Source: a virus
Reading direction: 5' to 3' (one strand)
DNA length: 64,000 nt
Virus record (IMG/VR): IMGVR_UViG_3300048839_001082
Coordinates: 17,523-81,522 of that record
The notes beneath the pieces are model-generated. The model made no database searches and was not told where the DNA came from. It saw nothing but the letters and a program-made list of their open reading frames with translations. The position numbers were made by a program, and so were the translations under genes. This document shows positions 2 through 52,330 of the stretch, in pieces (within the stretch, counting starts at the first letter, position 1; each line of letters opens with the position of its first letter).

Positions 2-3000
2 AGATACAATCCTAATTTCCGCTTCAGAACAGACGCTGCCACCAAAGAACTTTTAGATCTCGCTAAGAATGCTGAAGACTCTGTAGTATTCACTAATGAA
101 GCAATAGAAACTGCTTTAGGTGAAGCTCGTATAAAATTAGAAAGAATTGATGCATTAGTGCGTGAGCAAGAAACTACCATGTTTGGTAGTTATAAACCTT
201 TAGAAATGACCGGAAGACAAGGCGAGTACAATCAGACTTTATTGAATGGTTTTAACAGTGCCAGAGATGAAGCACTGCAACGCGTCAGAGAAAAGTTAGC
301 TTTCGATAGAGAAGAAAAGGCTATAAGAAAATTTAATAAACAGCTTAATGAAGTCGAAACCGTTGCTAAGAATATATTAAAGCTTGAGTTTGATGTTGAG
401 GATATATTTGCATTTGATCAACACAGCTTCAACAATATGGTCAGAATAACGACTGAAGTTGATGCATTGGGCAAGGCACTTATTAAGACATCAGATATTG
501 CCAGTAGAAATGCAATAATTTTAAAGATTAAAGAACAACGTGATCAATTTGTATATGAGCAATCTGAAGCAAGACTTGCGGAACCTGTTTATAATCAATC
601 CAGATTGCCTGAGTTCATGTCGGAAGCAGGCATGCAAATGTCACCCGAATTTGCGAATTCACTCAGTGACTTTAATGCAGGAATTATTGCAAAGATAGCT
701 ACAGACTTATCAAATAAAATAAAGAAAAGCAAGTTAAAAGTTCCGGGCAGTCCGGAGTATACAGTTCTTGCGGAAGAAATTAGAGCTGACCAAGACGCGA
801 ATGCAAGGTTCATTGCTGATTTGGCTAAATCCAATCAAGAGACCTTTTTCTATGTAAAAGATCTTGCGGGTAAATATGAAGTAGACTTCCCTGGGCTAAT
901 GAAGAAATACGGACTTTCCGGGGCAAAGACTTTATTATCGAAATTGGCGGATAAAGAACAAGCACGTAGTGATGCCATTGCCAAGGGTGATATAGGTATT
1001 CTACCTGGAATTGATAACGATATTGCCAGATTTAAAGAAACACTTGCTGAAATTCCTTTGGATGTGCAAACAATGCTTTCGACGATTGGAAATGTCGGCG
1101 TTTCGATTGACATCAATGATTTGTTTAATGCGCCTGAGCTTTTAGCAACACTTACAGAAGTTGCTAATAGACTAAGAGAAATTGATAAAGATTTTAAATT
1201 TAAAGGACCGACCCTTACTTCCGAAGGCCTTGATTCAATATTGATTCGTCAACAAGCTCAACAGAGAGCGGCTTTTGCGTCTTCTTTAAAGACGATTGAC
1301 AATACACCTCAAAAATTGGGGACTTTGCTTTCAAATTACGGAGCGGATACTTCTAAAGATATTTCGGCATTAACAGAAAGCACTCGTAATTATATTGTGG
1401 AACTTGAGCGTGTTAAAACCACTATTGAATTTTTGAGAAAGTCTAGACAAAGCCCTGCAGATACCGAAGCACTTTTTCAGATGGACACACTATTTAATCG
1501 ATTGACAGAAAGCTTTAAAAATCGTTTAAAGAAAGTGGGCGAAGTATTCGGTGAAGTGAATTCTACACTTAATTTAGAACTTACGGAATCGCAATTCTTT
1601 GGATTTTCTAAAGCTGCTCGTAAAACATTATCAGATTACGCTAACTATTTTGCCAGAGGAATTGAGGCTATTAGAGACTCATTTGATGGCAAAGACATGT
1701 TCGGTACAAGTGCTGAAGACTTCTATAAGAAATATAAAGCTGTTTTAAAGAAGTTAGAATTCATTAAAGTGGTGGAAACATCGCTGGAATCTATTTCTGA
1801 TGTCGTGACCGACGGTCTGGGTGCACAGTTTTCCAAGTTAAGCTCAGCCATGGGCGATCTTCAAATTGATAAGTCAAGCTTCGCCACATTGCCTTCAGAA
1901 CTTCGTGAAAGTTCGACTAAGAGTGCTCTCGCCGTTAATGCATTATCTGGTTTGAATGATTTATCAGGTTTATCTGAAGAGCAACGTGCTTTGATAAATA
2001 CATTGTCACCGGATGGCTCTAATGCAGAATCTATTTTAAATCAAATTGTTGAAGAATTACGTCGTTCCAATTTGACAGAATTGGATCCTCAGATAGCTGA
2101 ATTTTTGAAGAGTCAGTCTGAATTCCCGCGATCACAATTAGACGCCACCAATAACTTATCGTCCGCAATATGGACATTAAAAGATACTATTGATGCATTG
2201 ATTTTGAAATTTCCGATGGCAGTTCCGAAGTTTGCTTCAGGTGGTTCAATTAAAGGTCCCGGAAGCGGTATTTCAGATTCTATACCGGCATGGCTTTCCA
2301 ATGGTGAGTTTGTCGTAAATGCCAAGCAAACCAAAAAGCATCGCGGTCTTGTCGAAGCAATAAATAAAGATAGACTTCCTAGATTTGCTGATGGTGGGTA
2401 CTTCGGGAATCCCCTTCACATGATCGATAGTCTTGACGATACGATTAATGTGGATGAATTGCTGAAAGTCTATCCTAAGTTTCAAGATATTCTAAATTTA
2501 AAAGAAAATACTTCTGCTGAATTGGTTAAGAGATTTGGAAATAATTTAGATCTTAATAATTTGAATCCAAAAGCGTTTCTTGAGTTTCGAAAGATTTCAG
2601 ACAGTTACGCAGAATCTCTTGCGAATTTGTTAAATTTGGATTTAAATTTAACTGATGATCTAGACGTTTTTAGATTTGAACCTGATTTAAAATTAGGTTC
2701 GGAGCAAGTCAGAAAGTCATTTATAAATTTACCTGAACTTGGTGCAAAATACGCTGACTTTCCAAACAAGACCGCAGCGGAAGCAATCAGATACCATGAG
2801 TTTGGGCATGCAATTGCATTTAAATCTCGCAATCTTCCAATAGATCTCGGGCCTGATGTCGACCCTGGTTTAACAGCCGCAATGTTTAGAAGAGTAAAGG
2901 TTCCAATAACGGAATCTGGAAATCTTGTATTAAAAGATTTTCTCGGAACTCCCTTATCTTCGATAAGCATGGAAGATGCAATTAAACAATTTAATTTGCC

Positions 3001-5140
3001 GGATGCGCTATTAGAAAGGTATAAGAAGACTTCTCCTATTTTATTTGATGAAGTGGAAGCTTGGCGAATAGGTGATTTGATATCTCCTTTAAAATTGAAT
3101 ACAAAACCTTTCGAAAGAGCAGCTTTAGGGACATATTCAAATCCCGGACTTACTCAAACATTTGTTAGAATGCAATATGCGGATGAATTGAAATCATTAT
3201 CTTTTAAAGAAACTCCGACACATTCTGCGTTGGTATTAAAAGAAGCGACAGCAGCATTATCAAACCCCCTGGATGTAGACGCTTATCTTGCTAGAGTGAA
3301 TGCTTTTCCAGACTTTGCAACGCTTAAAGAGAATACGCCAGATGCGCTTCAAAAAGATCTTTTAATTTATAAAAGAATGTTTGATGAAAAGGCTAGCCAA
3401 ACATTAATGGGAAAAGCTACGCTTCCCCAGAAAGCTAAAGCTTTTGCAGAACTTTCCAAGAGTGTTCTAAAGAATGCTGCAAAGAATAGTATTGCTCTCA
3501 TAAAGAATCCTAATTTTGTTCCCAGTTTGATCGGTGGTGTTGCCGTTGAAGAACTATTAAGGAGAACGCTACCTATTGAAGACCATTTCATAGGTCTTGC
3601 AGACCAAATGGAAGGAACCTTACCGATAGAAATGAGAGGTGTGATAGCAGCATACGGCGCATTTGCGCAATCGTTGTTAGGACTCGTGGTAGGAAACTTA
3701 GTCGGTGATAAAATTTTTGGTGCTAAGAGACTCTTTAAAGTGTTTTCCAAAAATACATTTGCGAATGGAGGCTCAGTAAAAGGCCCCGGTGGCCCTGTTG
3801 AAGACAAAATTCCTGCATTTCTCTCCAATGGTGAATTTGTCGTAAACGCGGCCAGTACAAAGAAGCACAGAGCTCTTCTGGAACGTATCAATTCAGCTAA
3901 AGGTTACAAGCTCGGCGGTCCTGTCGGTGACAATCAAGATGTGATTGAACGCGCCCTTAGAGGGATTCAATATGGACAAATTGACGCTCTTCAAGGTGTC
4001 AGAAAGTTGAGAGCGCAAGCTTCTATACTCGATATCAATTTGAATCCATTGCAATTTGAAGTGCTCGATCAAAAGAAACGTGAAGAATTTAGAAGTCTTT
4101 TAGAAAATGCTTTCCGAGCAAGAATCGAAGCTTTAGATGCAAAGACTCCTGAACTTGCGGCTGCCGCTCACAGAGCTTTAACGAATGTCGATGAATTCAT
4201 GGATAAATACATGACACGATTCGCTGATCCTGCAAAAGAAGCTGGAGCTAATTTTGCCAGAGATTCAGAAGAAAACTTCCAATCGGGCTTAGCTGATTTA
4301 CTCAAGGGGAATACCGCAGAAGGTAAGTCAATTGGTAAGACATTTGCTGATAATTTTCTTGATCAATTCACGAATAGCGTTATAAATACATTCGCTAAGG
4401 GAATTACTGATCAACTTTTTGGAAAAGATTCGCCTATAACAGAAGTGTTAAAAGAAGCGGGAACAGGCATTTTTGGTGTGTTGAAAAAGAGTTTTTTCAA
4501 GAATAAAGAAGAAATTCCAACCGGTGCGCCTTTGACCGCGACATCCGGTACACTTTCGCCATTGATAGCCTCTGAAGGTAGTCCTTTATTGTCTGAAACG
4601 ATTAATCCTTTTGAAAGCTTAGAATCGTTAACGGAAGACTTCAAAGTCTGGTTTGATGGTTTCGATGCGACATTAACGGATGGTCTAAAAAGTATCGAAT
4701 CTATTGATCTGAGTACGCCACTGGCAGGATTGGGCAAGTTATTATCAGACAACCTAGATGAAGCTATCAATATGTTCATAAAGTTTACTGGTGGTTTTGC
4801 TTCCGGTGGTTTTGTCAGTGGACCGGGCACGAGTACTTCTGATTCTATTCCCGCAATGTTATCTGCGGGTGAATTTGTTGTAAATGCAGCATCTGTCAAA
4901 AAATTCGGCCCATTACTTGAATCTATTAATTCAGGACGTCCTCGTAATTTTTCTGGAGGCGGTCTTGTGGCACCTTCGCCATTAGCTGAAAGACCTGTTT
5001 CAGTCGGTGGGCAGCAAATCATAAACCTTAATATAACTGGTGATATTAGCCGACAAACAAGAAGTGAGATTTACGCAATGATCCCACAAATAGCCGGCGG
5101 AGTTAATTTACACAACAGAGAGAAAGGTTTAAAGGTATAA
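2..5140 (+). CDS. Tail tape measure protein, 5'-partial
   Basis: Frame is open from position 2. Long helical protein just upstream of the tail genes, with three copies of the TMP C-terminal motif FAxGGxVxGPG...DxIPAxLSxGEFVVNA (starting 2231, 3758, 4796). Confidence 0.85.
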   Translation, partial: RYNPNFRFRTDAATKELLDLAKNAEDSVVFTNEAIETALGEARIKLERIDALVREQETTMFGSYKPLEMTGRQGEYNQTLLNGFNSARDEALQRVREKLAFDREEKAIRKFNKQLNEVETVAKNILKLEFDVEDIFAFDQHSFNNMVRITTEVDALGKALIKTSDIASRNAIILKIKEQRDQFVYEQSEARLAEPVYNQSRLPEFMSEAGMQMSPEFANSLSDFNAGIIAKIATDLSNKIKKSKLKVPGSPEYTVLAEEIRADQDANARFIADLAKSNQETFFYVKDLAGKYEVDFPGLMKKYGLSGAKTLLSKLADKEQARSDAIAKGDIGILPGIDNDIARFKETLAEIPLDVQTMLSTIGNVGVSIDINDLFNAPELLATLTEVANRLREIDKDFKFKGPTLTSEGLDSILIRQQAQQRAAFASSLKTIDNTPQKLGTLLSNYGADTSKDISALTESTRNYIVELERVKTTIEFLRKSRQSPADTEALFQMDTLFNRLTESFKNRLKKVGEVFGEVNSTLNLELTESQFFGFSKAARKTLSDYANYFARGIEAIRDSFDGKDMFGTSAEDFYKKYKAVLKKLEFIKVVETSLESISDVVTDGLGAQFSKLSSAMGDLQIDKSSFATLPSELRESSTKSALAVNALSGLNDLSGLSEEQRALINTLSPDGSNAESILNQIVEELRRSNLTELDPQIAEFLKSQSEFPRSQLDATNNLSSAIWTLKDTIDALILKFPMAVPKFASGGSIKGPGSGISDSIPAWLSNGEFVVNAKQTKKHRGLVEAINKDRLPRFADGGYFGNPLHMIDSLDDTINVDELLKVYPKFQDILNLKENTSAELVKRFGNNLDLNNLNPKAFLEFRKISDSYAESLANLLNLDLNLTDDLDVFRFEPDLKLGSEQVRKSFINLPELGAKYADFPNKTAAEAIRYHEFGHAIAFKSRNLPIDLGPDVDPGLTAAMFRRVKVPITESGNLVLKDFLGTPLSSISMEDAIKQFNLPDALLERYKKTSPILFDEVEAWRIGDLISPLKLNTKPFERAALGTYSNPGLTQTFVRMQYADELKSLSFKETPTHSALVLKEATAALSNPLDVDAYLARVNAFPDFATLKENTPDALQKDLLIYKRMFDEKASQTLMGKATLPQKAKAFAELSKSVLKNAAKNSIALIKNPNFVPSLIGGVAVEELLRRTLPIEDHFIGLADQMEGTLPIEMRGVIAAYGAFAQSLLGLVVGNLVGDKIFGAKRLFKVFSKNTFANGGSVKGPGGPVEDKIPAFLSNGEFVVNAASTKKHRALLERINSAKGYKLGGPVGDNQDVIERALRGIQYGQIDALQGVRKLRAQASILDINLNPLQFEVLDQKKREEFRSLLENAFRARIEALDAKTPELAAAAHRALTNVDEFMDKYMTRFADPAKEAGANFARDSEENFQSGLADLLKGNTAEGKSIGKTFADNFLDQFTNSVINTFAKGITDQLFGKDSPITEVLKEAGTGIFGVLKKSFFKNKEEIPTGAPLTATSGTLSPLIASEGSPLLSETINPFESLESLTEDFKVWFDGFDATLTDGLKSIESIDLSTPLAGLGKLLSDNLDEAINMFIKFTGGFASGGFVSGPGTSTSDSIPAMLSAGEFVVNAASVKKFGPLLESINSGRPRNFSGGGLVAPSPLAERPVSVGGQQIINLNITGDISRQTRSEIYAMIPQIAGGVNLHNREKGLKV

Positions 5141-5141
5141 T

Positions 5142-5738
5142 ATGTACGGCATCCTCAATGGCACTACAGTCATTGCTAAATTCGTGGCACCTTTGTCAGT
5201 GAAAAGCAATGTACCGGTATTCGTGTCGGATGCCCTTTCATTAAAGAGAACAGTAACTAAAAGAAATGCTCAACGTTGGGAGATCTCAACGAATCTTGAG
5301 CCGTTATCTGTTGGTGCGAATGATTTATTCGCACTACTCGTTAATAAAGGTGCATCTGAAGTATTGACTATTCAAATGCCTCAAAATTATGGGGTTATTA
5401 AGAAAAGAGTATCCACAGCCTCTCCTAATGTTGATGGGCTATTGGGTGCTACAAACGTAAATGTTTCTCTAAACAATGGATTGATCCCTGCAGGTACTTT
5501 TATTAGATTTTCGAATCACAGTAAAATTTATATGGTGACTGCTGATTTCAATCAAACCGCAGGAATAATGAGTATTTTTCCTGGACTACTGATTGCTGTG
5601 CCGCCGGGTCAAATATTTAAACATCAGGACGATGTTGAAATGTTGTGCAGATTTGATACCGATGTTGTTATTGGCATGCAATACACAGACGGCATTCTAA
5701 TGGATGTCGGCACAGTGAATTTAATAGAGGCACTATGA
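5142..5738 (+). CDS. Minor tail protein (distal tail-like)
   Basis: Directly after the TMP and tightly coupled; beta-rich composition; call rests on synteny. Confidence 0.6.
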   Translation: MYGILNGTTVIAKFVAPLSVKSNVPVFVSDALSLKRTVTKRNAQRWEISTNLEPLSVGANDLFALLVNKGASEVLTIQMPQNYGVIKKRVSTASPNVDGLLGATNVNVSLNNGLIPAGTFIRFSNHSKIYMVTADFNQTAGIMSIFPGLLIAVPPGQIFKHQDDVEMLCRFDTDVVIGMQYTDGILMDVGTVNLIEAL

Positions 5739-17448: not shown

Positions 17449-17673
17449 ATGTGCGAGCTTTGTGTTCTCGGGGGTTGGCCAGAAGGTGAATGCTTCTGGA
17501 GTGAAAAGAACAAGAACGAGGAATCAATCATGATTGACTCGATCATGATTCACGACGACGCGGCCGCGAATGATCTTCTCGCGAGTGAGCGTCTCGATCT
17601 GTTGTGGGAATACGTCTGTGATTTCTACAGTACACCCAGGCAGACTTACGCGCGTTTTGTTTTCGGGGTTTGA
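17449..17673 (+). CDS. Hypothetical protein
   Basis: RBS AGGAG; start could be an internal ATG. Confidence 0.45.
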   Translation: MCELCVLGGWPEGECFWSEKNKNEESIMIDSIMIHDDAAANDLLASERLDLLWEYVCDFYSTPRQTYARFVFGV

Positions 17674-43930: not shown

Positions 43931-44763
43931 TGAGCAAACCCATAGTCATTTATCACGCCAATTGTGCGGACGGCTTCTCGGCTGCCTGGGTCTTCTGGCA
44001 TAAATACAAAGATGCCCTGGAGTACTTCCCCGGTATTTACGGTAAACCACCCCCGAACGTTCAAAATCGTATTGTATACATAGTAGACTTTAGCTATACT
44101 CTTGATGTGATGATCGAGATTATTAAAGATGCGATTCAAGTGACCTTACTTGATCATCATCAAACTGCTATGCAAGCGTTAGATGGCCTTCACGCAAATA
44201 ATTATTTTCCACATTTTGATATTAATCGAAGCGGTGCTTCAATTGCTTGGGACTTTGTATTCCCTCATGAGAAACGACCTTTGTTGTTGAATCACGTGGA
44301 AGATAGAGATTTGTGGCGATTTAAACTAGATGGCACACGTGAGTATTCAGCGGCATTGTTCAGTCACAAGTATGATTTCGAAACTTGGGAAAAATTGATG
44401 GCGATGGATGAGATCGCCATGGTTGATTTCAGAATCGCCGGAATGCATATTGAAAGAAAGCATTTCAAAGATATTGAAGAATTGTTGAAGGTCGGTACTC
44501 GTGAGATTGTCATTGATAAGATCCTGGTGCCTTGCTGTAATCTGCCTTGTACAATGTGCAGCGATGGTGGCGATATCCTTTCAAAATCAGCACCATTTGC
44601 GGCCACATATTACGACACGGCCACATATCGAGTCTTCAGCCTTCGTTCTCAAAAGGAAGGTGGAATGGACGTGGCGAGAATTGCCGAGAAATATGGAGGA
44701 GGTGGGCACAAGAATGCCGCCGGTTTTCGGGTGAAGAGAGATACTTTTCTAGCACAAATTTAA
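43930..44763 (+). CDS. DHH/DHHA1 phosphoesterase
   Basis: YHANCADG, IVDFS, LDHH, DRDLW, SLRS, GGGHKNAAGF. Confidence 0.9.
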   Translation: MSKPIVIYHANCADGFSAAWVFWHKYKDALEYFPGIYGKPPPNVQNRIVYIVDFSYTLDVMIEIIKDAIQVTLLDHHQTAMQALDGLHANNYFPHFDINRSGASIAWDFVFPHEKRPLLLNHVEDRDLWRFKLDGTREYSAALFSHKYDFETWEKLMAMDEIAMVDFRIAGMHIERKHFKDIEELLKVGTREIVIDKILVPCCNLPCTMCSDGGDILSKSAPFAATYYDTATYRVFSLRSQKEGGMDVARIAEKYGGGGHKNAAGFRVKRDTFLAQI

Positions 44764-45046
44764 CTCTAAAAATAAGTGCGTTAAAAACTGCGATCCTGAC
44801 ACGCGTTTCGCCGCCCTTCCCTCCCCCATGACTTTCGAAAACGGTGGCGACTCGGGTCAGTTCTGGCCCACGGTGTGGCATCCTCGATGTGTAGGTATTG
44901 CACCGAGATTTCCTGTTGGCTTAACCCTATGGGCAATCCTGGATGATCATTAATAAGTATTAAGGTTCTGGATTAGAAACATACTCTCTTCGGAGAGCCG
45001 TTATCTGGTCGCGGTTCGGCCAGAATTTTTATTAGGAAACTTTCTC

Positions 45047-45694
45047 ATGAGTCAAGAACTCCGTCAAGTATATGTTATCGGTGACAAGGAATTCACCACG
45101 AAGGCCGAAGCTCTGACATTCCTGCGTCGCCCTAAGATCGAAGCGGAAATGGTCAAGGTCACCGGTGGTAATAAAGACTTGACTACATGGCTTCTGGATA
45201 ATCAGGAGTCGGTGGAAGTTGCGTTTGAAGTTGGCACGATTCGTCGCGTCACTAAGTCTGAGCACAATAAGTTGTCCAAGGCCGTCGAAGCGCTGAAGGC
45301 CATTGAAGGCAATCCGAAGATTGCTTTCTTGCAAGAGAATGCCGGTGCGATCCTGGATTCTTTCCGTTGGCCCGCTGTTAAGCGTATGGATGAAGCTGAG
45401 AAGAATGCCGCGGCTCGTAATTCGCTCGTCGCCGCTAGCGAAGGTAATGAGGAATTGGCGGAGTGGATCGTCAGCAATAAGGATGCAGTCCTGGCCGCTT
45501 ATGACGCCGGTAAGGAGAAGCGTGAAGTCTCTACCAAGGCTACCGAAGGTCTGGCCGCTTATCGCGCCAAGAAGGCTGCTGAGAAGGCAGAAGCGGAAGC
45601 CCTTGAAATGGCGGAAGCTGAAAAGAAGGGACCTGAAGCGGTCGCTGCTCTTATTCAGAAGCGTGAAGCTGCAGCTGCTAAGAACGCTAAGTAA
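45047..45694 (+). CDS. Probably abundant Ala/Lys/Glu-rich protein of unknown function
   Basis: Strongly biased codons (AAG, GCT, CGT); own leader and downstream hairpin. Confidence 0.7.
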   Translation: MSQELRQVYVIGDKEFTTKAEALTFLRRPKIEAEMVKVTGGNKDLTTWLLDNQESVEVAFEVGTIRRVTKSEHNKLSKAVEALKAIEGNPKIAFLQENAGAILDSFRWPAVKRMDEAEKNAAARNSLVAASEGNEELAEWIVSNKDAVLAAYDAGKEKREVSTKATEGLAAYRAKKAAEKAEAEALEMAEAEKKGPEAVAALIQKREAAAAKNAK

Positions 45695-45702
45695 ATAATG
45701 TG

Positions 45703-45776
45703 AAGCCCCATTTTGAAGCACCCTGAGGTGTTTTGAGATGGGGCTTAAAAATGGAGATGGGCTTAAAAATGGAGAT
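45703..45776 (+). repeat. Long hairpin with 18-bp tandem duplication gggcttaaaaatggagat
   Basis: Units at 45741-45758 and 45759-45776. Confidence 0.7.
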
Positions 45777-45918
45777 TAATATGCTTACTTTGATAAATAT
45801 CGGACTTGCTTTGCTTTTCGCGGCCAATTTAACACTTTTTGTTACGCCTCATGGTTCTTGGTTCAATCTTTTCGCAGCTTCTTTCATTGGTCTTCTTTCA
45901 ATTATCAAATAAATAATC

Positions 45919-46197
45919 ATGACCGCAAAACGTACATGTCTGACCGTTCGCCAGAACTGGCTTCTCTGCAACTATCTCGCGGAGAATTACACAAGTTCAA
46001 AGATGAACGATACGCAATTCGCGAAGAAGGCTTCCGAAGAACTGGGATTTGATGTCTCAGTACCTCAACTCGGACAGCGTCGTCGAGAGATGGAAATTCC
46101 TTCTTTCATGGAAACGTCCAAAGAACCTGAGACAGTGATTGAACGTGTGCGGGAACTCGAGAAACGTGTTGACGCACTGGAACAAATGTTCAAATGA
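45919..46197 (+). CDS. Small HTH-like protein
   Basis: DTQFAKKASEELGFDVS..L..RR plus a coiled-coil tail. Confidence 0.5.
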   Translation: MTAKRTCLTVRQNWLLCNYLAENYTSSKMNDTQFAKKASEELGFDVSVPQLGQRRREMEIPSFMETSKEPETVIERVRELEKRVDALEQMFK

Positions 46198-46203
46198 TTA
46201 ACA

Positions 46204-46293
46204 GGACAGTTGGCTGAGAGGCTTAAAGCGCCGGTCTTGAAAACCGGAGTTGGCGAAAGTCGACCGTGAGTTCGAATCTCACACTGTCCGCCA
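46204..46293 (+). tRNA. tRNA-Ser(TGA)
   Basis: GGACAGT/ACTGTCC acceptor, CT-TGA-AA loop, long variable arm, G73 and CCA. Confidence 0.93.
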
Positions 46294-46319
46294 TTTAAAA
46301 TATAAGAGGATTAAATAGA

Positions 46320-46661
46320 ATGATTACAGAATCAAGACCAATTAGCGTACTCCGACGTGTTTTAATATGGGGAGGTGTTACAATTTTATCTAAACATGTA
46401 CGACAGTTTCCTGTTATTGAAATGCTCAATGCTGATGACATTGGGATTGGTTGGGTCATGACAAACACAGAATGGATGTTATTTGAACGTGATGATGCTT
46501 TAGTAAAGATCAAACGTAAATTGACAGTTGAGAGAATAGATTACGACGCATACACAAATAAGCAATTTAAAGAAAAGTATGGCTTTTATAAAGAGGCGCA
46601 TTTTGATCATTATCATAAATTTCATAAGGCATTGAAGACATTGCAACAATATTATGTTTAA
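46320..46661 (+). CDS. Hypothetical protein
   Basis: GAGGA RBS. Confidence 0.55.
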   Translation: MITESRPISVLRRVLIWGGVTILSKHVRQFPVIEMLNADDIGIGWVMTNTEWMLFERDDALVKIKRKLTVERIDYDAYTNKQFKEKYGFYKEAHFDHYHKFHKALKTLQQYYV

Positions 46662-46845
46662 GAACTAAAATGACACTCCCATTTCCCAGAGACATTGACC
46701 TCAAAACTATCATTTCAGACCTTAAAATCTCTCAGAGAGGACTTGAATTGCTGATAAATCGAACACCGACGAGCGAGTCTCGCAATGATTTGACGGAAGC
46801 AAATATCCATCTCATGGAAGCAATTGACGTTTTAAAGAAACAACT

Positions 46846-47055
46846 ATGAGCACTGTTAGTAAAAAAATCGCTGATGAAGTGATCGCTCAGAACGGTCGCT
46901 ATGAAGGAGATCCCCAAGTTTATTCTATTTGGAAATACACATCTAAGTGGAATACGGAGGGTTACAAGTTGTTTTATAAGCCGAATATGTATCTATCTGA
47001 TTCGAAATTTACGATCGATCCAAGGATTTATTGGAGTTATGATGAGCAATTCTAA
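46846..47055 (+). CDS. Hypothetical protein
   Basis: Coupled ORF. Confidence 0.55.
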   Translation: MSTVSKKIADEVIAQNGRYEGDPQVYSIWKYTSKWNTEGYKLFYKPNMYLSDSKFTIDPRIYWSYDEQF

Positions 47056-47296
47056 ATCAGGCACTGTGGTATTTGATGATCTTTGTATCAGTTACTTTTC
47101 TGATAAGGCTGGTCAAATCAATTACAAGATCACACGATTTGATCATTGCATAGCTCAGGATTTCACGGTTGATGATCAAAGCTTTTTTAGAGCATTGTCA
47201 ATTGCATTGCATCCCACTAACTTTCCGGATTACGACCGTGACTTTATGTGGGCAGAAGCAATTATGCCGAAAGGAGAGTTTAGATGGATTCCATGA
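47042..47296 (+). CDS. Hypothetical protein
   Basis: GGAG RBS before ATG 47042. Confidence 0.5.
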   Translation: MSNSKSGTVVFDDLCISYFSDKAGQINYKITRFDHCIAQDFTVDDQSFFRALSIALHPTNFPDYDRDFMWAEAIMPKGEFRWIP

Positions 47297-47315
47297 GTAT
47301 CGATGTTTCTCTTTT

Positions 47316-47501
47316 ATGCGCAAAGATGTCAAAAAGGCTTTAGAGCCTTATCTTGAAAAAGGATGGGAGATCTCTAAAAGTTCTAAACATTATCAAATGA
47401 AACATCGAGAGTACGGGACTGTTGTGATGTCTTCAACAGCTTCCTGCCCCTTCTCAATCAAACACATTCTCGGTGATCTTAAAAGAGCTGAAAAGAAATA
47501 A
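47316..47501 (+). CDS. HicA-like small RNase/toxin
   Basis: 61 aa; KGWEI..SSKHYQMKH...TVVMS...IKHILGDLKR pattern; start uncertain. Confidence 0.5.
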   Translation: MRKDVKKALEPYLEKGWEISKSSKHYQMKHREYGTVVMSSTASCPFSIKHILGDLKRAEKK

Positions 47502-47507
47502 TCGTTT

Positions 47508-47581
47508 GCCCTCATAGTTAAATGGTATAACAGGTCACTTGTAATGATCAATTCACTGTTCGATTCAGTGTGAGGGCACCA
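47508..47581 (+). tRNA. tRNA-Thr(TGT)
   Basis: GCCCTCA/TGAGGGC acceptor, CT-TGT-AA loop, TTCGATT, CCA. Confidence 0.9.
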
Positions 47582-47585
47582 TTAA

Positions 47586-47617
47586 GGTCGTCGGTTCGAT
47601 TCCGACTGGCGGCACCA
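47586..47617 (+). pseudogene. Isolated tRNA 3' half (Thr-like)
   Basis: ggtc-GTCGG-TTCGATT-CCGAC-TGGCGGC-A-CCA: intact T arm, acceptor 3' strand and CCA. Confidence 0.8.
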
Positions 47618-47633
47618 TTTTAAGGAAATCACA

Positions 47634-48026
47634 ATGAAGACTATTGGTATTGTTCTTTTGTCAGTGGTTTTGGCGTCGTGTGGTGGAGGCGGAGATGACT
47701 CGCCTTACGTCTCTAAATATGCTCGTTACAACGGGAGCTATACATGCAAAGTCGAAATGACGACACCCATGTATTTTCAGGTTAAAGGCGAATTTGAGGA
47801 TACACGGGCCACGCTCACGATGGGAGGCGCTAAGTACGTGTATGACGATGTATTCGCCGAAGTACGCGGTGGACATCCTCGTTACTCTGAAAAGTTCGGT
47901 GACTATGACAAGTATGAGACCGTGACATTTGGATATAAAGATGAAATGGTCATTTATCGAGGACCCTCCAGTAATTTGGATTATTATTACACGGATGAAT
48001 TCTTTCTTTGCACTAAGGATCGTTAA
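47634..48026 (+). CDS. Lipoprotein
   Basis: Signal peptide with lipobox LAS-C followed by a GGGG linker. Confidence 0.75.
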   Translation: MKTIGIVLLSVVLASCGGGGDDSPYVSKYARYNGSYTCKVEMTTPMYFQVKGEFEDTRATLTMGGAKYVYDDVFAEVRGGHPRYSEKFGDYDKYETVTFGYKDEMVIYRGPSSNLDYYYTDEFFLCTKDR

Positions 48027-49296
48027 TGGTGATCACTAAATTGAATACTTTGCCTGAAGAAGGTAAGGAAGACATGTTGGAAATTCTCGAATTGATGAAG
48101 AAATCAGTAACAGAGGGTGAGATCATTTCCTTCATCTCCGTTGGGATTGCACCCAATGATGAAACACTTATATGGATAGGTTCTCAAAAAAGAGTCACCA
48201 GGCTGCGCATGATGGGTGCGATCGCTAATCTTCAACATCATTTTAATTCAGAACAAGTATGATTACAGATGCCGATCGTTTAGACTTCTTAGATACTCTG
48301 ATCAATCGCACAGAGTTTCAAAACACTAGACGTCCCAAAGAATATGTCGCGTCAGATATGCATTTAGGGCAAGGTTGGTGTTCACTATATGTCAGAAACT
48401 TATTTGGAAACATCGTGAAATCTTCCAGTCAAAGTTCAGTTAGAGAAACAATTGATGCTGTCATGAATGGCGCAAAGGAATAAATATGGAACGCGTCACG
48501 TTGCACGGAGAAACATTTTTCGTGGTTCATCCGGTCGATCGACTAATGTCAAGTCATATGGTTCGTGAAGTGGTCGAATCTGGCGCTCGATTCGTGGTCA
48601 ATGCTAGAACAAGTGAATTGACCATTGACCGATCGGCCGTGAAGCAAAATGCTTCAATTTCTGTCACTGAAGATATTTATAAACGACTTGAGGTACTCAC
48701 GAAACAATTTCAATCAGCACTCAATGAATTAGCCGAGATTCGCAAAGAAATTTCCCTTCTTAAGAGGTGATTATGAAACGAGCTGATGTAATTGAAAATC
48801 TTTTGTTGAGTCGGAAAGCCGCACTTCATTTGTTCTATATTACTCAACAGTTCGGCATTCAGATCACCACCGATAATTTTGATATTGTGACAGTAGTTGA
48901 AGATGAGCCAGAAGTTCTTCGAGAAATTGAATTGTGGGCTGATGATGTAGGTTTGCTATCAAGAAAGCATCCTGAAGAAGCCAAGTTACTTTTCTTAGAA
49001 GTGCCTAAGAAATGACTAAAACAAGAGTAATTAATCAATGGATGGACAGAGACCCTAATTGGGTCTTTGTTCCCGTTGAACACGGTAAATATATGAGAGT
49101 CGAAGTGGCGGTGGTCAGAGCACCATGCATCGCTTGCGGAGCGCAATTGGGAGTACCTTGTAAACGTCTTAAAACAAATGGGATGGATTATAGCTCTTTC
49201 GTGCATGATGTAAGAAAGACACACGCGAAAGCAGGGCATCTTCATGATATTTATCATGATGTAATTTCAGAGGAAGTCGAATCACCACTTAAATAA
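48026..49296 (+). other. Run of five small coupled hypothetical genes (48026-48262, 48259-48483, 48486-48770, 48767-49015, 49012-49296)
   Basis: Overlapping start/stop codons; the last has a CxxC...C...H zinc-binding pattern. Confidence 0.55.
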
Positions 49297-49300
49297 CAAT

Positions 49301-49332
49301 GCGGGGTTGGTGGAATTGGTAGACGTAAGGGG
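49301..49332 (+). pseudogene. 5' fragment of a broken tRNA-Leu
   Basis: GCGGGGT-TG-GTGGAATTGGTAGAC...AAGGG; its acceptor strand is exactly complementary to ACCCCGC at 49982-49988. Confidence 0.8.
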
Positions 49333-49336
49333 GCAT

Positions 49337-49858
49337 ATGTTACCTTCGATAGAAAATGATAAATTTTTTCTAGAATTAATTGAAAAAGAAGAGCTATTTG
49401 TATCAAATTTAGGCGATGTCTTAGACCTAAATACTGGTAAACAAATAGGGTTTATCACAGGCGGTTATAAGAGAATTAATATGTACGGCAAGACGATGGC
49501 AGTGCATCGTTTAGTTTATTTAGTACATATTTCTGAAAACATACCTGAATTTCTAGCAATTGATCATTTAGATGGGAATAAGCTCAATAACAAGGTTGAA
49601 AATTTAGAAGCGGTCTCATATTCTGAAAATAATAAAAGAGCTGTTTCAAAAGGTCTGCACAAAATCGATATAGCGCGTTTAAAAGAAATTTCAAAAGGGT
49701 CTAAAAATGGAATGGCTAAATTGAATTGTGAAGAAGTAAAAGAAATACGCGCATTACGTGAAAAAGGATTTAAGGTAAAAGATATTGCAGAATTGTATCA
49801 TGTGTTGCCAAAAGCAATTTCACAATTGCTCAATGGCGTGACATATAAAGACTGTTAA
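49337..49858 (+). CDS. Free-standing HNH homing endonuclease with C-terminal HTH
   Basis: VSNLG, VHRLV, IDHLDGNKLNN...NLE....EN, then KNGMAKL...IAELY HTH. Confidence 0.88.
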   Translation: MLPSIENDKFFLELIEKEELFVSNLGDVLDLNTGKQIGFITGGYKRINMYGKTMAVHRLVYLVHISENIPEFLAIDHLDGNKLNNKVENLEAVSYSENNKRAVSKGLHKIDIARLKEISKGSKNGMAKLNCEEVKEIRALREKGFKVKDIAELYHVLPKAISQLLNGVTYKDC

Positions 49859-49863
49859 ATTCA

Positions 49864-49948
49864 GGCCGTGTGGCGAAATTGCTAAACGCAGTAGATTTAA
49901 AATCTACCACCGAAAGGTTTACGGGTTGGAGTCCCGTCACGGCCACCA
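49864..49948 (+). tRNA. tRNA-Leu(TAA) with reversed C19:G56 elbow pair
   Basis: GGCCGTG/CACGGCC acceptor, TT-TAA-AA loop, variable arm, A73 and CCA; D-loop has GC and T-loop TTGGAGT. Confidence 0.88.
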
Positions 49949-49956
49949 TTTCTATT

Positions 49957-49992
49957 GCGGTCATACCGGTTCGATTCCGGTACCCCGCACCA
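49957..49992 (+). pseudogene. 3' fragment of the broken tRNA-Leu
   Basis: ACCGG-TTCGATT-CCGGT-ACCCCGC-A-CCA. Confidence 0.82.
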
Positions 49993-50000
49993 TAAACATA

Positions 50001-50213
50001 ATGAAAATCAAATTTCCAATTTTAGATAAGAATTTTAACTTCTTGGGACATGTAGATGCCATCACTCCTGAAGAAGCATTGATGAAAGCTAAGAAGAAGT
50101 TTCATGAACCGGCAATGATGGTTGATCTTCTGGCGGTACCTCAGGGTAAATATATAATGTACTCAAAACTTCAAACTGTTGAAAGGTGGTCTGAATATGG
50201 TGTCACGCATTGA
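50001..50213 (+). CDS. Hypothetical protein
   Basis: ATG just after the tRNA fragment. Confidence 0.5.
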   Translation: MKIKFPILDKNFNFLGHVDAITPEEALMKAKKKFHEPAMMVDLLAVPQGKYIMYSKLQTVERWSEYGVTH

Positions 50214-50448
50214 TCGAAGAGAATATTATGAATATGTATTTTGGTATCAGGGTCGCCCTGAAGGTAATTGGGAAACTTTAGAAGAATTTACTGCATGCCC
50301 TCGTTATGAGTTGACTAAAGCCTTTTCTAATTTTGACAATAAACAAGAATTGATTTTTGATTATGAGGATAGTGAGACTTGCAAAAGAGCTGTTGAAGAA
50401 CACAATATGAGGCTCTATAGAAGAATTCCTTTCGTCATAAAGGATTGA
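50197..50448 (+). CDS. Hypothetical protein
   Basis: AGGTGG RBS. Confidence 0.5.
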   Translation: MVSRIDRREYYEYVFWYQGRPEGNWETLEEFTACPRYELTKAFSNFDNKQELIFDYEDSETCKRAVEEHNMRLYRRIPFVIKD

Positions 50449-50449
50449 T

Positions 50450-51127
50450 ATGTTGTTATACTCAGCTGATAAATTGGTGAAGCAGTCATGTTCTCAAATG
50501 AATTATTTGGATTGGCAAAGAAACCCTTCAGATGGCAACGTAATGACAGATTGGGATCAATTCAAAGGATCCACTGAAAGCCAACTCAAAGGAAATGAAT
50601 TCGCTGAGGAAGCCTCTAAATCTGATTACAAAGAGATGAGAGGTAGTTTCATTTTTGACTCTAAGACTTTGGGTGACACAATTCAAATCAATTATTGCTT
50701 TGATGAAGTTCGTTCCTTGCCTTCCAAAAACATTGTGATTGAACATAAGAGCGTCATATTGCGAGATGATGAGGATGTCACCACGAAAGAGTATTTAACT
50801 GATTGTGTTACTCAAGTCGGATTTTACAAAGCACTTCATGAGTTTTCAAACAAACAATATCGAACAGCTCGATTTTATGAAGAAGCGGGATGGCCTGTTC
50901 ATACATTAAATCTTTCATTCAAACCAATTGAATTTCTTCTTCATATTGGTGATAAATGGTATAAAATAAATACTAAAGATCCTTCTGAGATTCTTCGGTA
51001 TTACATCACTAAAATCAAAGCTTCAAAAGATTTTCAGAAATCGAGGGCATTTGATCTCAAATATCATAATAAATCTTGGAATTATTTTAAGAAGTTTATC
51101 ACTCGACGTGTAACTAAGGCGCTTTAA
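50450..51127 (+). CDS. Putative PD-(D/E)XK nuclease
   Basis: CFDEV...VIEHKS...TQVGFY resembles the D...ExK...QxxxY of RecB/Cas4-like nucleases. Confidence 0.5.
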   Translation: MLLYSADKLVKQSCSQMNYLDWQRNPSDGNVMTDWDQFKGSTESQLKGNEFAEEASKSDYKEMRGSFIFDSKTLGDTIQINYCFDEVRSLPSKNIVIEHKSVILRDDEDVTTKEYLTDCVTQVGFYKALHEFSNKQYRTARFYEEAGWPVHTLNLSFKPIEFLLHIGDKWYKINTKDPSEILRYYITKIKASKDFQKSRAFDLKYHNKSWNYFKKFITRRVTKAL

Positions 51128-51316
51128 TGAACTATACTTCTGACATCGTCAAAGAACAACAACTGAGGTTCGATCATTCACCCAAGATGAGGCAATTATT
51201 GAGGCATGAACTCATTTGTGAGAATCCTGATTCATCAACATTGAAGAGATATAAACTGGTGTTTCATTATGATGATGGAACCAAAATTGAGACTGATTAC
51301 AATGGCAGAATGATCA

Positions 51317-51748
51317 ATGGAAACACTCAAGCTTGAGAATGGTAAATATGAGCTTCGATATGATTCAAAAGAGCACACTCTGAAGGCATATCGACATGGC
51401 GAAATGTGGCAGGACTTCACCGGTAATAAATTCATTTATTTGTTGTTTATCAAAGCAATGGAATCTGATTATTATACTTCCAATTTCTTTCAGCAACCTT
51501 ATCAACTATCGGAGAAGGACATTAAGCTTCGAGAATTTGCTGAGAGATATAGTAAAGAAACTGAAGCATACGATCGAATGGTTTGTACCGGGCCAATTAT
51601 TGAAGGTTCAATTCGACCCATGAATGCTCGAGAAACAGCATTGATTTCAAGGAATGCTTCAAGGGCCTTTAATGAGATTGCTCATATGGCGATTCAATAC
51701 GGAATAACTGGGAAAGAACTCAGAAGCGAAATACTTTCAATCCCATAA
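51317..51748 (+). CDS. Hypothetical protein
   Basis: LKAYRHGEMWQDFTGNKFIY motif; last gene before the terminator. Confidence 0.6.
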   Translation: METLKLENGKYELRYDSKEHTLKAYRHGEMWQDFTGNKFIYLLFIKAMESDYYTSNFFQQPYQLSEKDIKLREFAERYSKETEAYDRMVCTGPIIEGSIRPMNARETALISRNASRAFNEIAHMAIQYGITGKELRSEILSIP

Positions 51749-51752
51749 TCAC

Positions 51753-51806
51753 ACCCTCCCCGGCTCACCTTAATTGGTGGGTTGGGGGGGGGTATAATTT
51801 TTTTTT
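51753..51806 (+). terminator. Strong intrinsic terminator
   Basis: Long GC-rich stem accctccccggctcacc/ggtgggttggggggggg plus T run. Confidence 0.75.
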
Positions 51807-51809
51807 GAT

Positions 51810-52330
51810 TTTATTATACATAAATAAAGAATGAAATTTTCAATTTATCGATCCTTCAGGGACCAAAAAGGGAAAATTCGGAGTTTCAATCTTTGTGTGA
51901 GTTGAGATTGAAAAGCTGTTAACTAAATGAAAGAGGTGCTTTGAGAAAGACACTCATCAGAATATCAAGAATAATGATTAACGATTAATGATACGTCTTT
52001 AATGACATTAGAGCACTCGAGCGAGAAGGTGAAATGAGACGTCATTAGTATAGATAATCGTTAATCTTATCGAACTCAATGGACGTGTTTAGAAGAACGT
52101 CCATAATAAGAACGTCCTATAAAGACGTGAGCGACACACGTCAGGTGCTATGCCTGGATCGCTCAGAGATCATTAAAGATGTATAAGTAGATAATAGCTA
52201 ACCTAAAAGATTATTAGTTAATTAGCGATACTCTATACTCTCTAAGAACGTTCTTAAAGATTATTATGGATTACACTCGGTGATGTACTTATGTCACTGA
52301 AAATTGGGTCGATTTTGGGCAGTTATTTGA
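51810..52330. other. Non-coding region with inverted and short direct repeats upstream of terminase (candidate origin or packaging region)
   Basis: gattaacgatta/taatcgttaatc inverted repeat, repeated agaacgtcc, palindrome taagaacgttctta. Confidence 0.45.

Follow-up and report, generated by a model that had tools for sequence, protein, structure and literature searches.

The window analysed here is a stretch of 64,000 nucleotides (nt) from the IMG/VR virus record IMGVR_UViG_3300048839_001082 (positions 17,523 to 81,522 of that record). It contains a transfer RNA (tRNA) gene, tRNA-Leu(UAA), in which the G19:C56 pair that connects D-loop to T-loop at the elbow is reversed to C19:G56. Probably this is a working tRNA that serves as the spare gene of an HNH_3 mobile unit, and the reversal itself is near-neutral. 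The unit lies within another tRNA-Leu(UAA) gene, which is broken in the window and unbroken in a close relative of the phage. The features concerned are, in coordinates of the window:

49864-49948, + strand: tRNA-Leu(UAA), 85 nt, with C19 and G56 and encoded CCA (ARAGORN; Rfam tRNA, 56.8 bits)
49301-49324, + strand: 5′ remnant of the resident tRNA-Leu(UAA), nt 1-24 (acceptor strand, U8, G9, D-stem strand, and D-loop with G18 and G19)
49325-49957, + strand: inserted cassette, 633 bases in place of 26 in the unbroken allele (contig comparison)
49327-49333, + strand: ribosome-binding site AAGGGGG, 3 bases ahead of the HNH ATG at 49337 (read from the sequence)
49337-49858, + strand: HNH_3 endonuclease gene, 173 amino acids, free-standing homing-endonuclease type (Pfam HNH_3, E = 4.4e-11, 42.7 bits, cut-off 24.8)
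49958-49992, + strand: 3′ remnant, 35 bases (second half of the variable arm, T-arm TTCGATT, acceptor strand, A73, CCA)

Structure of the tRNA-Leu(UAA) with C19 and G56

The tRNA matched the Rfam model RF00005 with 56.8 bits (cut-off 29), and model positions 1-71 were covered. In the covariance-model alignment (Infernal), the D-loop consensus GG was replaced by G-C, with G18 at 49881 and C19 at 49882, and the T-loop consensus UUC by U-U-G, with G56 at 49928. When the gene was aligned by MAFFT with two Aeromonas-phage tRNA-Leu genes, the identical two columns (19 and 56) were altered. The first-pass annotation had read a C for G19 and a G for C56 from the letters of the two loops. The letters of the D-loop (AAATTGCTAAA) and the T-loop (TTGGAGT) match its wording, and the Infernal column assignment upheld its numbering. 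It had also described the other four tRNAs of the window as ordinary at the elbow, and all four indeed have C56 and GG in the D-loop.

The stems of the tRNA are wholly Watson-Crick (7/7, 3/3, 5/5, and 5/5 pairs). The molecule has U8, A14, A15 with U48, G18 with U55, U54, A58, U33, and A73, a 7-nt anticodon loop (TTTAAAA) with a purine at 37, and a variable region of 13 nt with a 3-base-pair (bp) stem. From the canonical elbow set, G18, U54, U55, and A58 are kept, and positions 19 and 56, now C and G, are still able to pair. The likeness to ordinary class II tRNA-Leu (RF00005; e.g., that of Aeromonas phage phiWae14, ~79% identical over 67 bases) extends to the cloverleaf, the 3-bp D-stem, the long variable arm, A73, A14, and G18, and further to U54, U55, A58, the anticodon loop, and the encoded CCA. 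Unlike the phage gene, ordinary tRNA-Leu(UAA) has G19:C56. Of the leucine identity set given in the accessible part of PMC2377443, A73, U8, A14, A15/U48, and G18/U55 can be read in the sequence, and 19-56 is pairable. Charging with leucine is a prediction.

The tRNA at 49864-49948 is very probably functional, and we infer that it is expressed and charged. It would decode UUA, which is the commonest leucine codon of the phage. The available part of PMC4810234 describes the outer pair of the elbow as a flat surface that is recognised by stacking. The change to C19:G56 would be a Watson-Crick swap of the same shape; the contact between D-loop and T-loop would be retained, as would the flat outer face of the elbow on which RNase P, the ribosome, and other partners stack. 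The tRNA begins 5 bases past the HNH stop codon, and RNase P probably frees it from the HNH transcript at this point.

The two changes could also be damage in a decayed, non-functional tRNA-like sequence that is dragged along by the cassette. Two conserved boxes are both changed, and the Rfam score is the lowest of the five tRNAs, as decay would predict. However, the two changes are exactly complementary, and every stem is perfect. Single changes were missing from 12 control matches (described below). The tRNA was unchanged in contigs of three studies, in one of which the adjoining dead 3′ remnant had acquired an A58>G change. With the resident gene broken, this tRNA is also the only one the phage has left for its top leucine codon. 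Decay is thus a most improbable explanation.

A cassette inside a broken resident tRNA-Leu(UAA) gene

The tRNA-Leu is nested, as the first-pass annotation had stated: remnants of another tRNA-Leu gene stand on either side of it, at 49301-49324 and 49958-49992. Their acceptor halves are complementary (GCGGGGT with ACCCCGC at 49982-49988), and bases 8-24 of the 5′ remnant recur unchanged at positions 8-24 in many phage tRNA-Leu genes of the ordinary type. From 5′ to 3′, the cassette between the remnants consists of AAGGGGG, the HNH_3 gene (49337-49858), 5 bases, the tRNA with C19:G56, and 9 bases.

Contigs of four public runs (X1, X3, X5, and X6) were compared with positions 48800-50400. One X6 contig matches 49257-49324 and then continues with 22 further letters; a second (contig 14) matches 49958-50143, with the same 22 letters ahead of the match. 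We read the loose ends shared by these X6 contigs (11 and 14) as the last part of the D-stem, A26, an anticodon stem of 5 bp, the loop CTTAAAA, and the variable arm's first half. Joined to the two remnants, they form an ordinary tRNA-Leu(UAA) of 85 nt. Between the X6 flanks and the window there are 14 differences over 1050 bases (~98.7% identity). The HNH region was covered in X6 only by a 36-base piece of another HNH gene, and the gap itself was not used as evidence.

The junction between cassette and remnant was found as in the window in contigs of X1, X3, and X5, which belong to three studies. The inner tRNA (49864-49948) was without any difference in all of them, and the X3 and X5 pieces were free of differences throughout. 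The X1 contig has A>G at 49974, which is A58 of the 3′ remnant, as expected of a dead copy. The site is therefore polymorphic for presence and absence of the cassette between near-identical genomes, being unbroken in X6 and carrying the cassette junction in X1, X3, and X5. The X5 matches at 49868-49906, which have 6-7 differences, come from other tRNA-Leu genes.

Thus 633 bases occupy the place of 26 in the close relative, and we conclude that the cassette broke one tRNA-Leu(UAA) and brought another. The mobile unit would comprise the ribosome site, the HNH_3 homing-endonuclease gene, and the spare tRNA. It would have replaced 26 bases of the resident tRNA-Leu(UAA), i.e., the end of the D-stem, the anticodon arm, and half of the variable arm, and such an element would break a gene and supply its substitute in a single step. 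On this account, a selfish nuclease can take up residence in an essential small RNA gene by way of a spare copy, with no intron involved. No description of a phage cassette of nuclease plus spare tRNA was found in the literature searched, which left most subscription journals outside.

A group I intron is classically found in tRNA-Leu(UAA) genes. As the outer gene is a tRNA-Leu(UAA), the HNH gene and the inner tRNA might lie within a self-splicing intron, with the outer tRNA still being made. This explanation is exceedingly improbable. No group I or group II model matched positions 44000-52000 at E values up to 1, and the insert opens with a ribosome site and an open reading frame (ORF). Relative to the unbroken allele, 26 bases of the outer gene, including the whole anticodon arm, are gone, which splicing could not restore. 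The cassette is thus not an intron, since no intron model matches it and the outer anticodon arm is missing. An integrase island bounded by attL and attR was also rejected: the HNH gene is the sole ORF, and the remnants are different, non-overlapping parts of a gene and not repeats.

The HNH_3 gene and its relatives

The search for relatives of the HNH protein returned 255, and the HNH motif block is conserved in the alignment. Five homologues with 55-66% identity start at the residue aligned with the ATG at 49337. The best relative found in metagenome contigs with visible context is that of locus L214 (47% identity), which stands directly after a DNA polymerase 53% identical to the PolA of this phage. 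A tRNA-Leu(UAA) with C19, G56, and the T-loop TTGGAAT comes 128 bases after the L214 HNH gene, and outer remnants are absent there. The nuclease lineage and the reversed tRNA-Leu(UAA) therefore co-occur at two different loci, because the window and L214 both have them.

The L214 HNH gene (3120-3640) encodes only 150 amino acids; its C-terminal helix-turn-helix part seems to go on in another frame, so this copy may be decaying. Two further HNH-type genes lie in the same locus of 7.5 kb, at 457-1188 and 4743-5504.

HNH enzymes are also found in the tRNA region of phage T5. By analogy with characterised systems, the cassette would behave as free-standing homing endonucleases of the T4 Seg/Mob type do, but placed inside its target gene and accompanied by a spare of the same anticodon; the endonuclease activity is presumed, and the target is deduced from the position of the cassette. 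In the accessible part of PMC2330249, T4 SegB is a GIY-YIG enzyme that cuts the tRNA genes of relatives lacking SegB and promotes its own spread along with that of adjacent tRNA genes. The site it recognises spans 27 bp, with the conserved part GGTTCRANTCC, which is the T-loop box (PMC2330249). The phage gene resembles SegB as a free-standing nuclease gene among phage tRNA genes (PMC2330249) and differs from it in encoding an HNH_3 and not a GIY-YIG enzyme. Moreover, SegB lies between intact genes, whereas the phage cassette lies inside a tRNA gene, has deleted 26 bases of it, and provides a substitute with the same anticodon; cleavage by the phage enzyme is a prediction.

Introns of group I that sit in tRNA genes and carry homing endonucleases, as far as described in the available part of PMC3984707, are similar in that a selfish endonuclease resides in a tRNA gene and tRNA function is kept. 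In the phage, a spare gene would take the place of splicing in keeping the function; no ribozyme was detected there, and the gene hosting the cassette is truncated.

Covariation and recurrence of the 19:56 pair in phage tRNAs

IMG/VR was scanned for the exact D-loop motif and the T-arm motif of the tRNA-Leu, spaced 30-50 bases apart. The double-change pattern gave 42 matches, 38 of which lay within ARAGORN tRNA genes. These 38 swapped tRNAs represent 24 distinct sequences and comprise 25 Ser(UGA), 12 Leu (5 CAA, 6 UAA, and 1 UAG), and 1 Phe. When only position 19 was changed in the pattern, ten IMG/VR matches were obtained and none was true, one being in a tRNA-Tyr with the motif in another register. 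When only position 56 was changed, there were two IMG/VR matches, none of them in a tRNA. The paired change thus exceeds what chance would give. The ordinary G19/C56 pattern had at least 117 matches.

A less biased sample was drawn from the other tRNAs of all fetched phage loci (fetched loci carry handles of the form L004). After removal of pattern-selected genes, duplicates, T-arm parses below 11/12, and T-loops without the initial TT, it contained 782 distinct genes. C56 was present in 761 of them, of which 758 had GG in the D-loop. Among the genes with U56, the D-loop read G-A in 14 of 14, and among those with A56 it read G-U in four of four, with no GG in either group. The three genes with G56 were ambiguous. 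Hence ~2.7% of the 19:56 pairs (21/782) are non-G:C, and C:G is the rarest of them. In an alignment of 14 swapped and 4 ordinary tRNA-Leu genes, picked from the matches, all 378 stem cells pair (378/378), and 18 of 21 pairs vary on both sides.

Position 19:56 in phage tRNAs behaves as a covarying Watson-Crick pair, because the genes with U56 or A56 always carry the matching D-loop base. The G19:C56 pair, which is taught as nearly invariant, is here an ordinary covarying pair, and all three alternatives are natural. The C19:G56 form bears on what RNase P, the ribosome, and the T-loop enzymes really read. No account of natural C19:G56 tRNAs was found in the literature search, which again left most subscription journals outside.

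The genes with A19:U56 (14) and U19:A56 (4) come from phage loci in the range L004-L174 and are always matched. In the tRNA-Lys of L165, U19 seems to be opposite G56.

The tRNA-Leu genes with altered elbows in L214 (3701-3787), L039 (1145-1229), and L286 (4522-4608) were reported by ARAGORN and not by Rfam at its gathering threshold with default filters. The swapped tRNA-Leu of L025 was listed by Rfam with 54.4 bits. With three of four missed at the default Rfam threshold, altered-elbow tRNA genes may be under-annotated, which matters for gene finders.

C19:G56 in cellular genomes and tested mutants

In a set with one genome per prokaryote species, the double pattern had 39 matches, 17 of them in tRNAs. 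These were five Ser(UGA), eight Leu(UAA) (six in metagenome-assembled genomes, MAGs, of Patescibacteria/Candidate Phyla Radiation, CPR), one Leu(CAG), and three Lys(UUU). The five swapped tRNA-Ser(UGA) genes lie on tRNA-rich, phage-like contigs of MAGs. The swapped tRNA-Lys(UUU) genes of three actinobacterial MAGs (L181, L203, and L209) are apparently single chromosomal genes.

For two CPR genomes (G001 and G002; loci L301, L311, and L312), with 43 and 46 tRNA matches, 20 long-arm tRNAs were fetched. Both genomes have one tRNA-Leu per anticodon. The UAA gene has C19:G56 in both, the CAA gene also in one, and the remaining three or four tRNA-Leu genes of each genome have the ordinary elbow. The C19:G56 design thus works in cells, because the sole UUA reader of two CPR genomes has it. 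Some phage tRNAs are fixed for the C:G elbow, as is the only tRNA-Leu(UAA) gene of certain CPR bacteria. The CPR tRNA-Leu(UAA) genes of L180, L184, L185, L188, L212, and L213 share with the phage gene identical D-loop and T-loop motifs, C19:G56, the anticodon, and the class II build. They differ in being housekeeping cellular genes with other stems, and no HNH_3 match was found in these six loci.

The accessible part of PMC2377443 reports mutants of the tRNA-Leu of Aquifex aeolicus: charging of the G19C mutant was not measurable, and the matched G19U:C56A mutant regained about half of the wild-type charging. The latter resembles the phage tRNA as a tRNA-Leu with a non-G:C Watson-Crick 19:56 pair, and indicates that the pair matters and not the bases (PMC2377443).

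The first-pass annotation took the paired change as the mark of a tRNA under selection. This is borne out by the paired stems, the core bases and CCA, the recurrence of the change in many independent and intact tRNAs, its presence in the sole Leu(UAA) of CPR genomes, and the rank of UUA as the top leucine codon. The swap itself would be a tolerated, near-neutral alternative, which arises occasionally and more easily in phage tRNAs. It would then not be a device aimed at the neighbouring HNH enzyme, and this is the least certain part of our explanation.

Nuclease genes beside tRNAs with altered elbows

The reversal may have been selected at the level of DNA. If HNH or other homing endonucleases read the D-loop or T-loop box as DNA, either G19C or C56G would remove the site, and the partner change would restore the RNA fold. 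By virtue of the flip, the cassette could then include a tRNA-Leu(UAA) and not be cut by its own enzyme. The SegB site described in the available part of PMC2330249, with its conserved GGTTCRANTCC, is compatible with such a mechanism; the corresponding box of the inner tRNA is GGTTGGAGTCC. The insertion point of the cassette lies 5 bases beyond G19, within the D-arm of a G19:C56 gene whose nt 8-24 recur in many phage tRNA-Leu genes. The D-arm block of the L214 tRNA departs from the consensus at G19C only, and this gene follows an HNH relative. HNH_3 genes also adjoin the swapped tRNA-Leu in L025 and L039. Among the matches listed, HNH_3 was present in 3 of 12 swapped-Leu loci and in 5 of 117 ordinary loci (Fisher P = 0.027).

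Several hints weigh against a near-neutral swap in a working tRNA. HNH_3 stands beside three separate lineages of swapped tRNA-Leu (the window, L214, and L025), and L039, one member of a fourth lineage, also has it, the other members having none nearby. A search around HNH relatives that was blind to the elbow found any tRNA in 7 of 80 loci. Four tRNAs lay ≤300 bases from an HNH relative, and two of these four were altered-elbow Leu(UAA) genes (C19:G56 in L214, A18/G55 in L286); compared with the background of 21/782, the binomial P, calculated post hoc, is 0.004. A PD-(D/E)XK endonuclease gene stops 4-5 bases short of the tRNA in 11 of the 30 swapped Ser(UGA) loci. As to the tRNA itself, its 56.8 bits are the lowest Rfam score among the five of the phage, and the Aquifex mutant was a laboratory U:A pair while the phage pair is a natural C:G, with no C:G among the Aquifex mutants in the accessible part of PMC2377443.

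Other findings speak against an immunity role. Statistical support for HNH linkage is weak and in part post hoc. When all swapped loci were pooled, HNH_3 was present in 3 of 42, compared with 5 of 117 ordinary loci among the matches listed (P = 0.44). No HNH_3 was found nearby in 9 of 12 swapped-Leu loci, in 25 of 25 viral Ser(UGA) loci, or beside the cellular CPR genes. L031 and L039 are one lineage, and the sole HNH_3 match of L031 is 1.3 kb away. L012 and L006 share the swapped tRNA of L039 and have no HNH_3 match in the locus. Nuclease genes adjoin ordinary tRNAs too, as with HNH at the tRNA-Phe of L101 and PD-(D/E)XK paralogues at the tRNA-Tyr genes of L024, L041, and L198. The swap is fixed in cellular CPR tRNA-Leu genes, and a tRNA-Thr that appears to have been replaced in the same phage (see below) is still G19:C56. 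The inner and the resident gene differ at nt 11, 13, 20b, and 24 and in the anticodon stem, so that immunity would not need position 19.

We therefore consider it unlikely that the flip shields the cassette from its nuclease, and a tolerated near-neutral variant is more likely. Equally doubtful is the wider proposal, drawn by analogy, that homing endonucleases reading D-loop and T-loop boxes as DNA might drive the recurrent matched elbow rewrites in phage tRNAs. If it were true, C19:G56 would be a DNA-level immunity allele, with one change selected on DNA and its partner on RNA. Cut-and-replace cassettes would spread by destroying ordinary tRNA genes and installing an immune version, and this would account for phages being where a tRNA pair held to be invariant varies most. 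Since broken and unbroken alleles are both in public data, homing and the possible immunity role of the flip are directly testable.

Regarding the linkage between C19:G56 and HNH genes that the first-pass annotation had raised, the phage survey gave a divided answer: the swap recurs and some Leu loci are linked, but there is no excess over all swapped loci. Its interpretation likewise stood in part. Selection for a functional tRNA was supported; escape from the HNH enzyme, from host tRNA nucleases, or from recombination was not borne out. The swap and the nucleases also occur separately.

The 11 loci with a PD-(D/E)XK gene (Pfam PDDEXK_5) are L008 (6540-7026), L004, L005, L009, L016, L019, L022, L024, L034, L036, and L198. 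Their layout of PD-(D/E)XK gene and tRNA-Ser(UGA) is the same as that of HNH gene and tRNA-Leu in the window. Pfam PDDEXK_5 is presumably linked to an intron-encoded homing endonuclease.

Possible evasion at the level of RNA

The flipped pair might alternatively change how host readers of the T-loop or elbow (defence nucleases, modification enzymes) handle the tRNA, and so keep the phage tRNA usable during infection. TruB and TrmA require C56. Non-G:C pairs at 19:56 occur in about 21 of the 782 unselected phage tRNAs, and the swap recurs across several isoacceptors. In Thermus, C56 is a determinant for 2-thiolation of m5U54, according to the accessible part of PMC7912444, and the part of PMC13096335 available describes a defence system that cuts the variable loop of a tRNA. 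Against this, no known nuclease reading position 56 or 19 came up, and the remaining four tRNAs of the phage are ordinary. The swap is also present in CPR housekeeping tRNA-Leu and in actinobacterial tRNA-Lys genes, where evasion would be senseless. Such evasion is very unlikely, and we retain the near-neutral swap in a working spare tRNA as the preferred explanation.

The virus record and its tRNA complement

The virus record that contains the window is 81.5 kb long and has terminal repeats. The phage encodes a T7-type RNA polymerase, a family A DNA polymerase, and an intein-bearing primase-helicase. Its terminase shares ~55% identity with the terminases of the nearest cultured relatives, EBPR siphovirus 1 and roseophage DSS3_VP1. 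In IMG/VR, the terminase and a downstream protein of 225 amino acids were without useful relatives. BLAST of 49250-50050 against phage records gave a sole match, 67 bases of tRNA, and exact-pattern scans with pieces of the tRNA-Leu gave a single chance match inside a coding region. No promoter or terminator signal in 48700-50500 scored above shuffles.

ARAGORN found five tRNA genes (Arg-UCU, Met, Ser-UGA, Thr-UGU, and Leu-UAA), and there were no further tRNA matches in the whole record. Besides the tRNA-Met, the four elongator tRNAs (Leu, Arg, Ser, and Thr) each match the top codon of their family: UUA (27%), AGA (39%), UCA (26%), and ACA (36%), respectively.

Possible further tRNA replacements and altered elbows

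A second tRNA fragment is present in the window, near the tRNA-Thr(UGU) gene:

47586-47617, + strand: orphan 3′ tRNA half with T-arm TTCGATT, acceptor strand, and CCA (read from the sequence; T-arm-like match)

This orphan half begins 4 bases past the intact tRNA-Thr(UGU) (47508-47581), which keeps G19:C56. No 5′ half matching the orphan was found nearby, and neither the ORF that precedes tRNA-Thr (47319-47501) nor those past the cassette had a Pfam match. The arrangement suggests a second tRNA replacement in the phage genome, at tRNA-Thr and without an elbow swap.

Locus L286, on a metagenome contig, contains in a row (2913-4608) a ROOL RNA (296 bits), a tRNA-Gln, an HNH_3 relative, and a tRNA-Leu(UAA). 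The elbow of this tRNA-Leu(UAA) has A18 and G55 instead of G18 and U55. L248 has a tRNA-Phe near an HNH gene, with A18/G55 as in L286.

Several large phage contigs (L008 and L016) have two quite different tRNA-Tyr(GUA) genes ~700 bases apart (3417-3500 and 4198-4282 in L008). These paired tRNA-Tyr genes may likewise reflect cassettes that replace or duplicate tRNAs.

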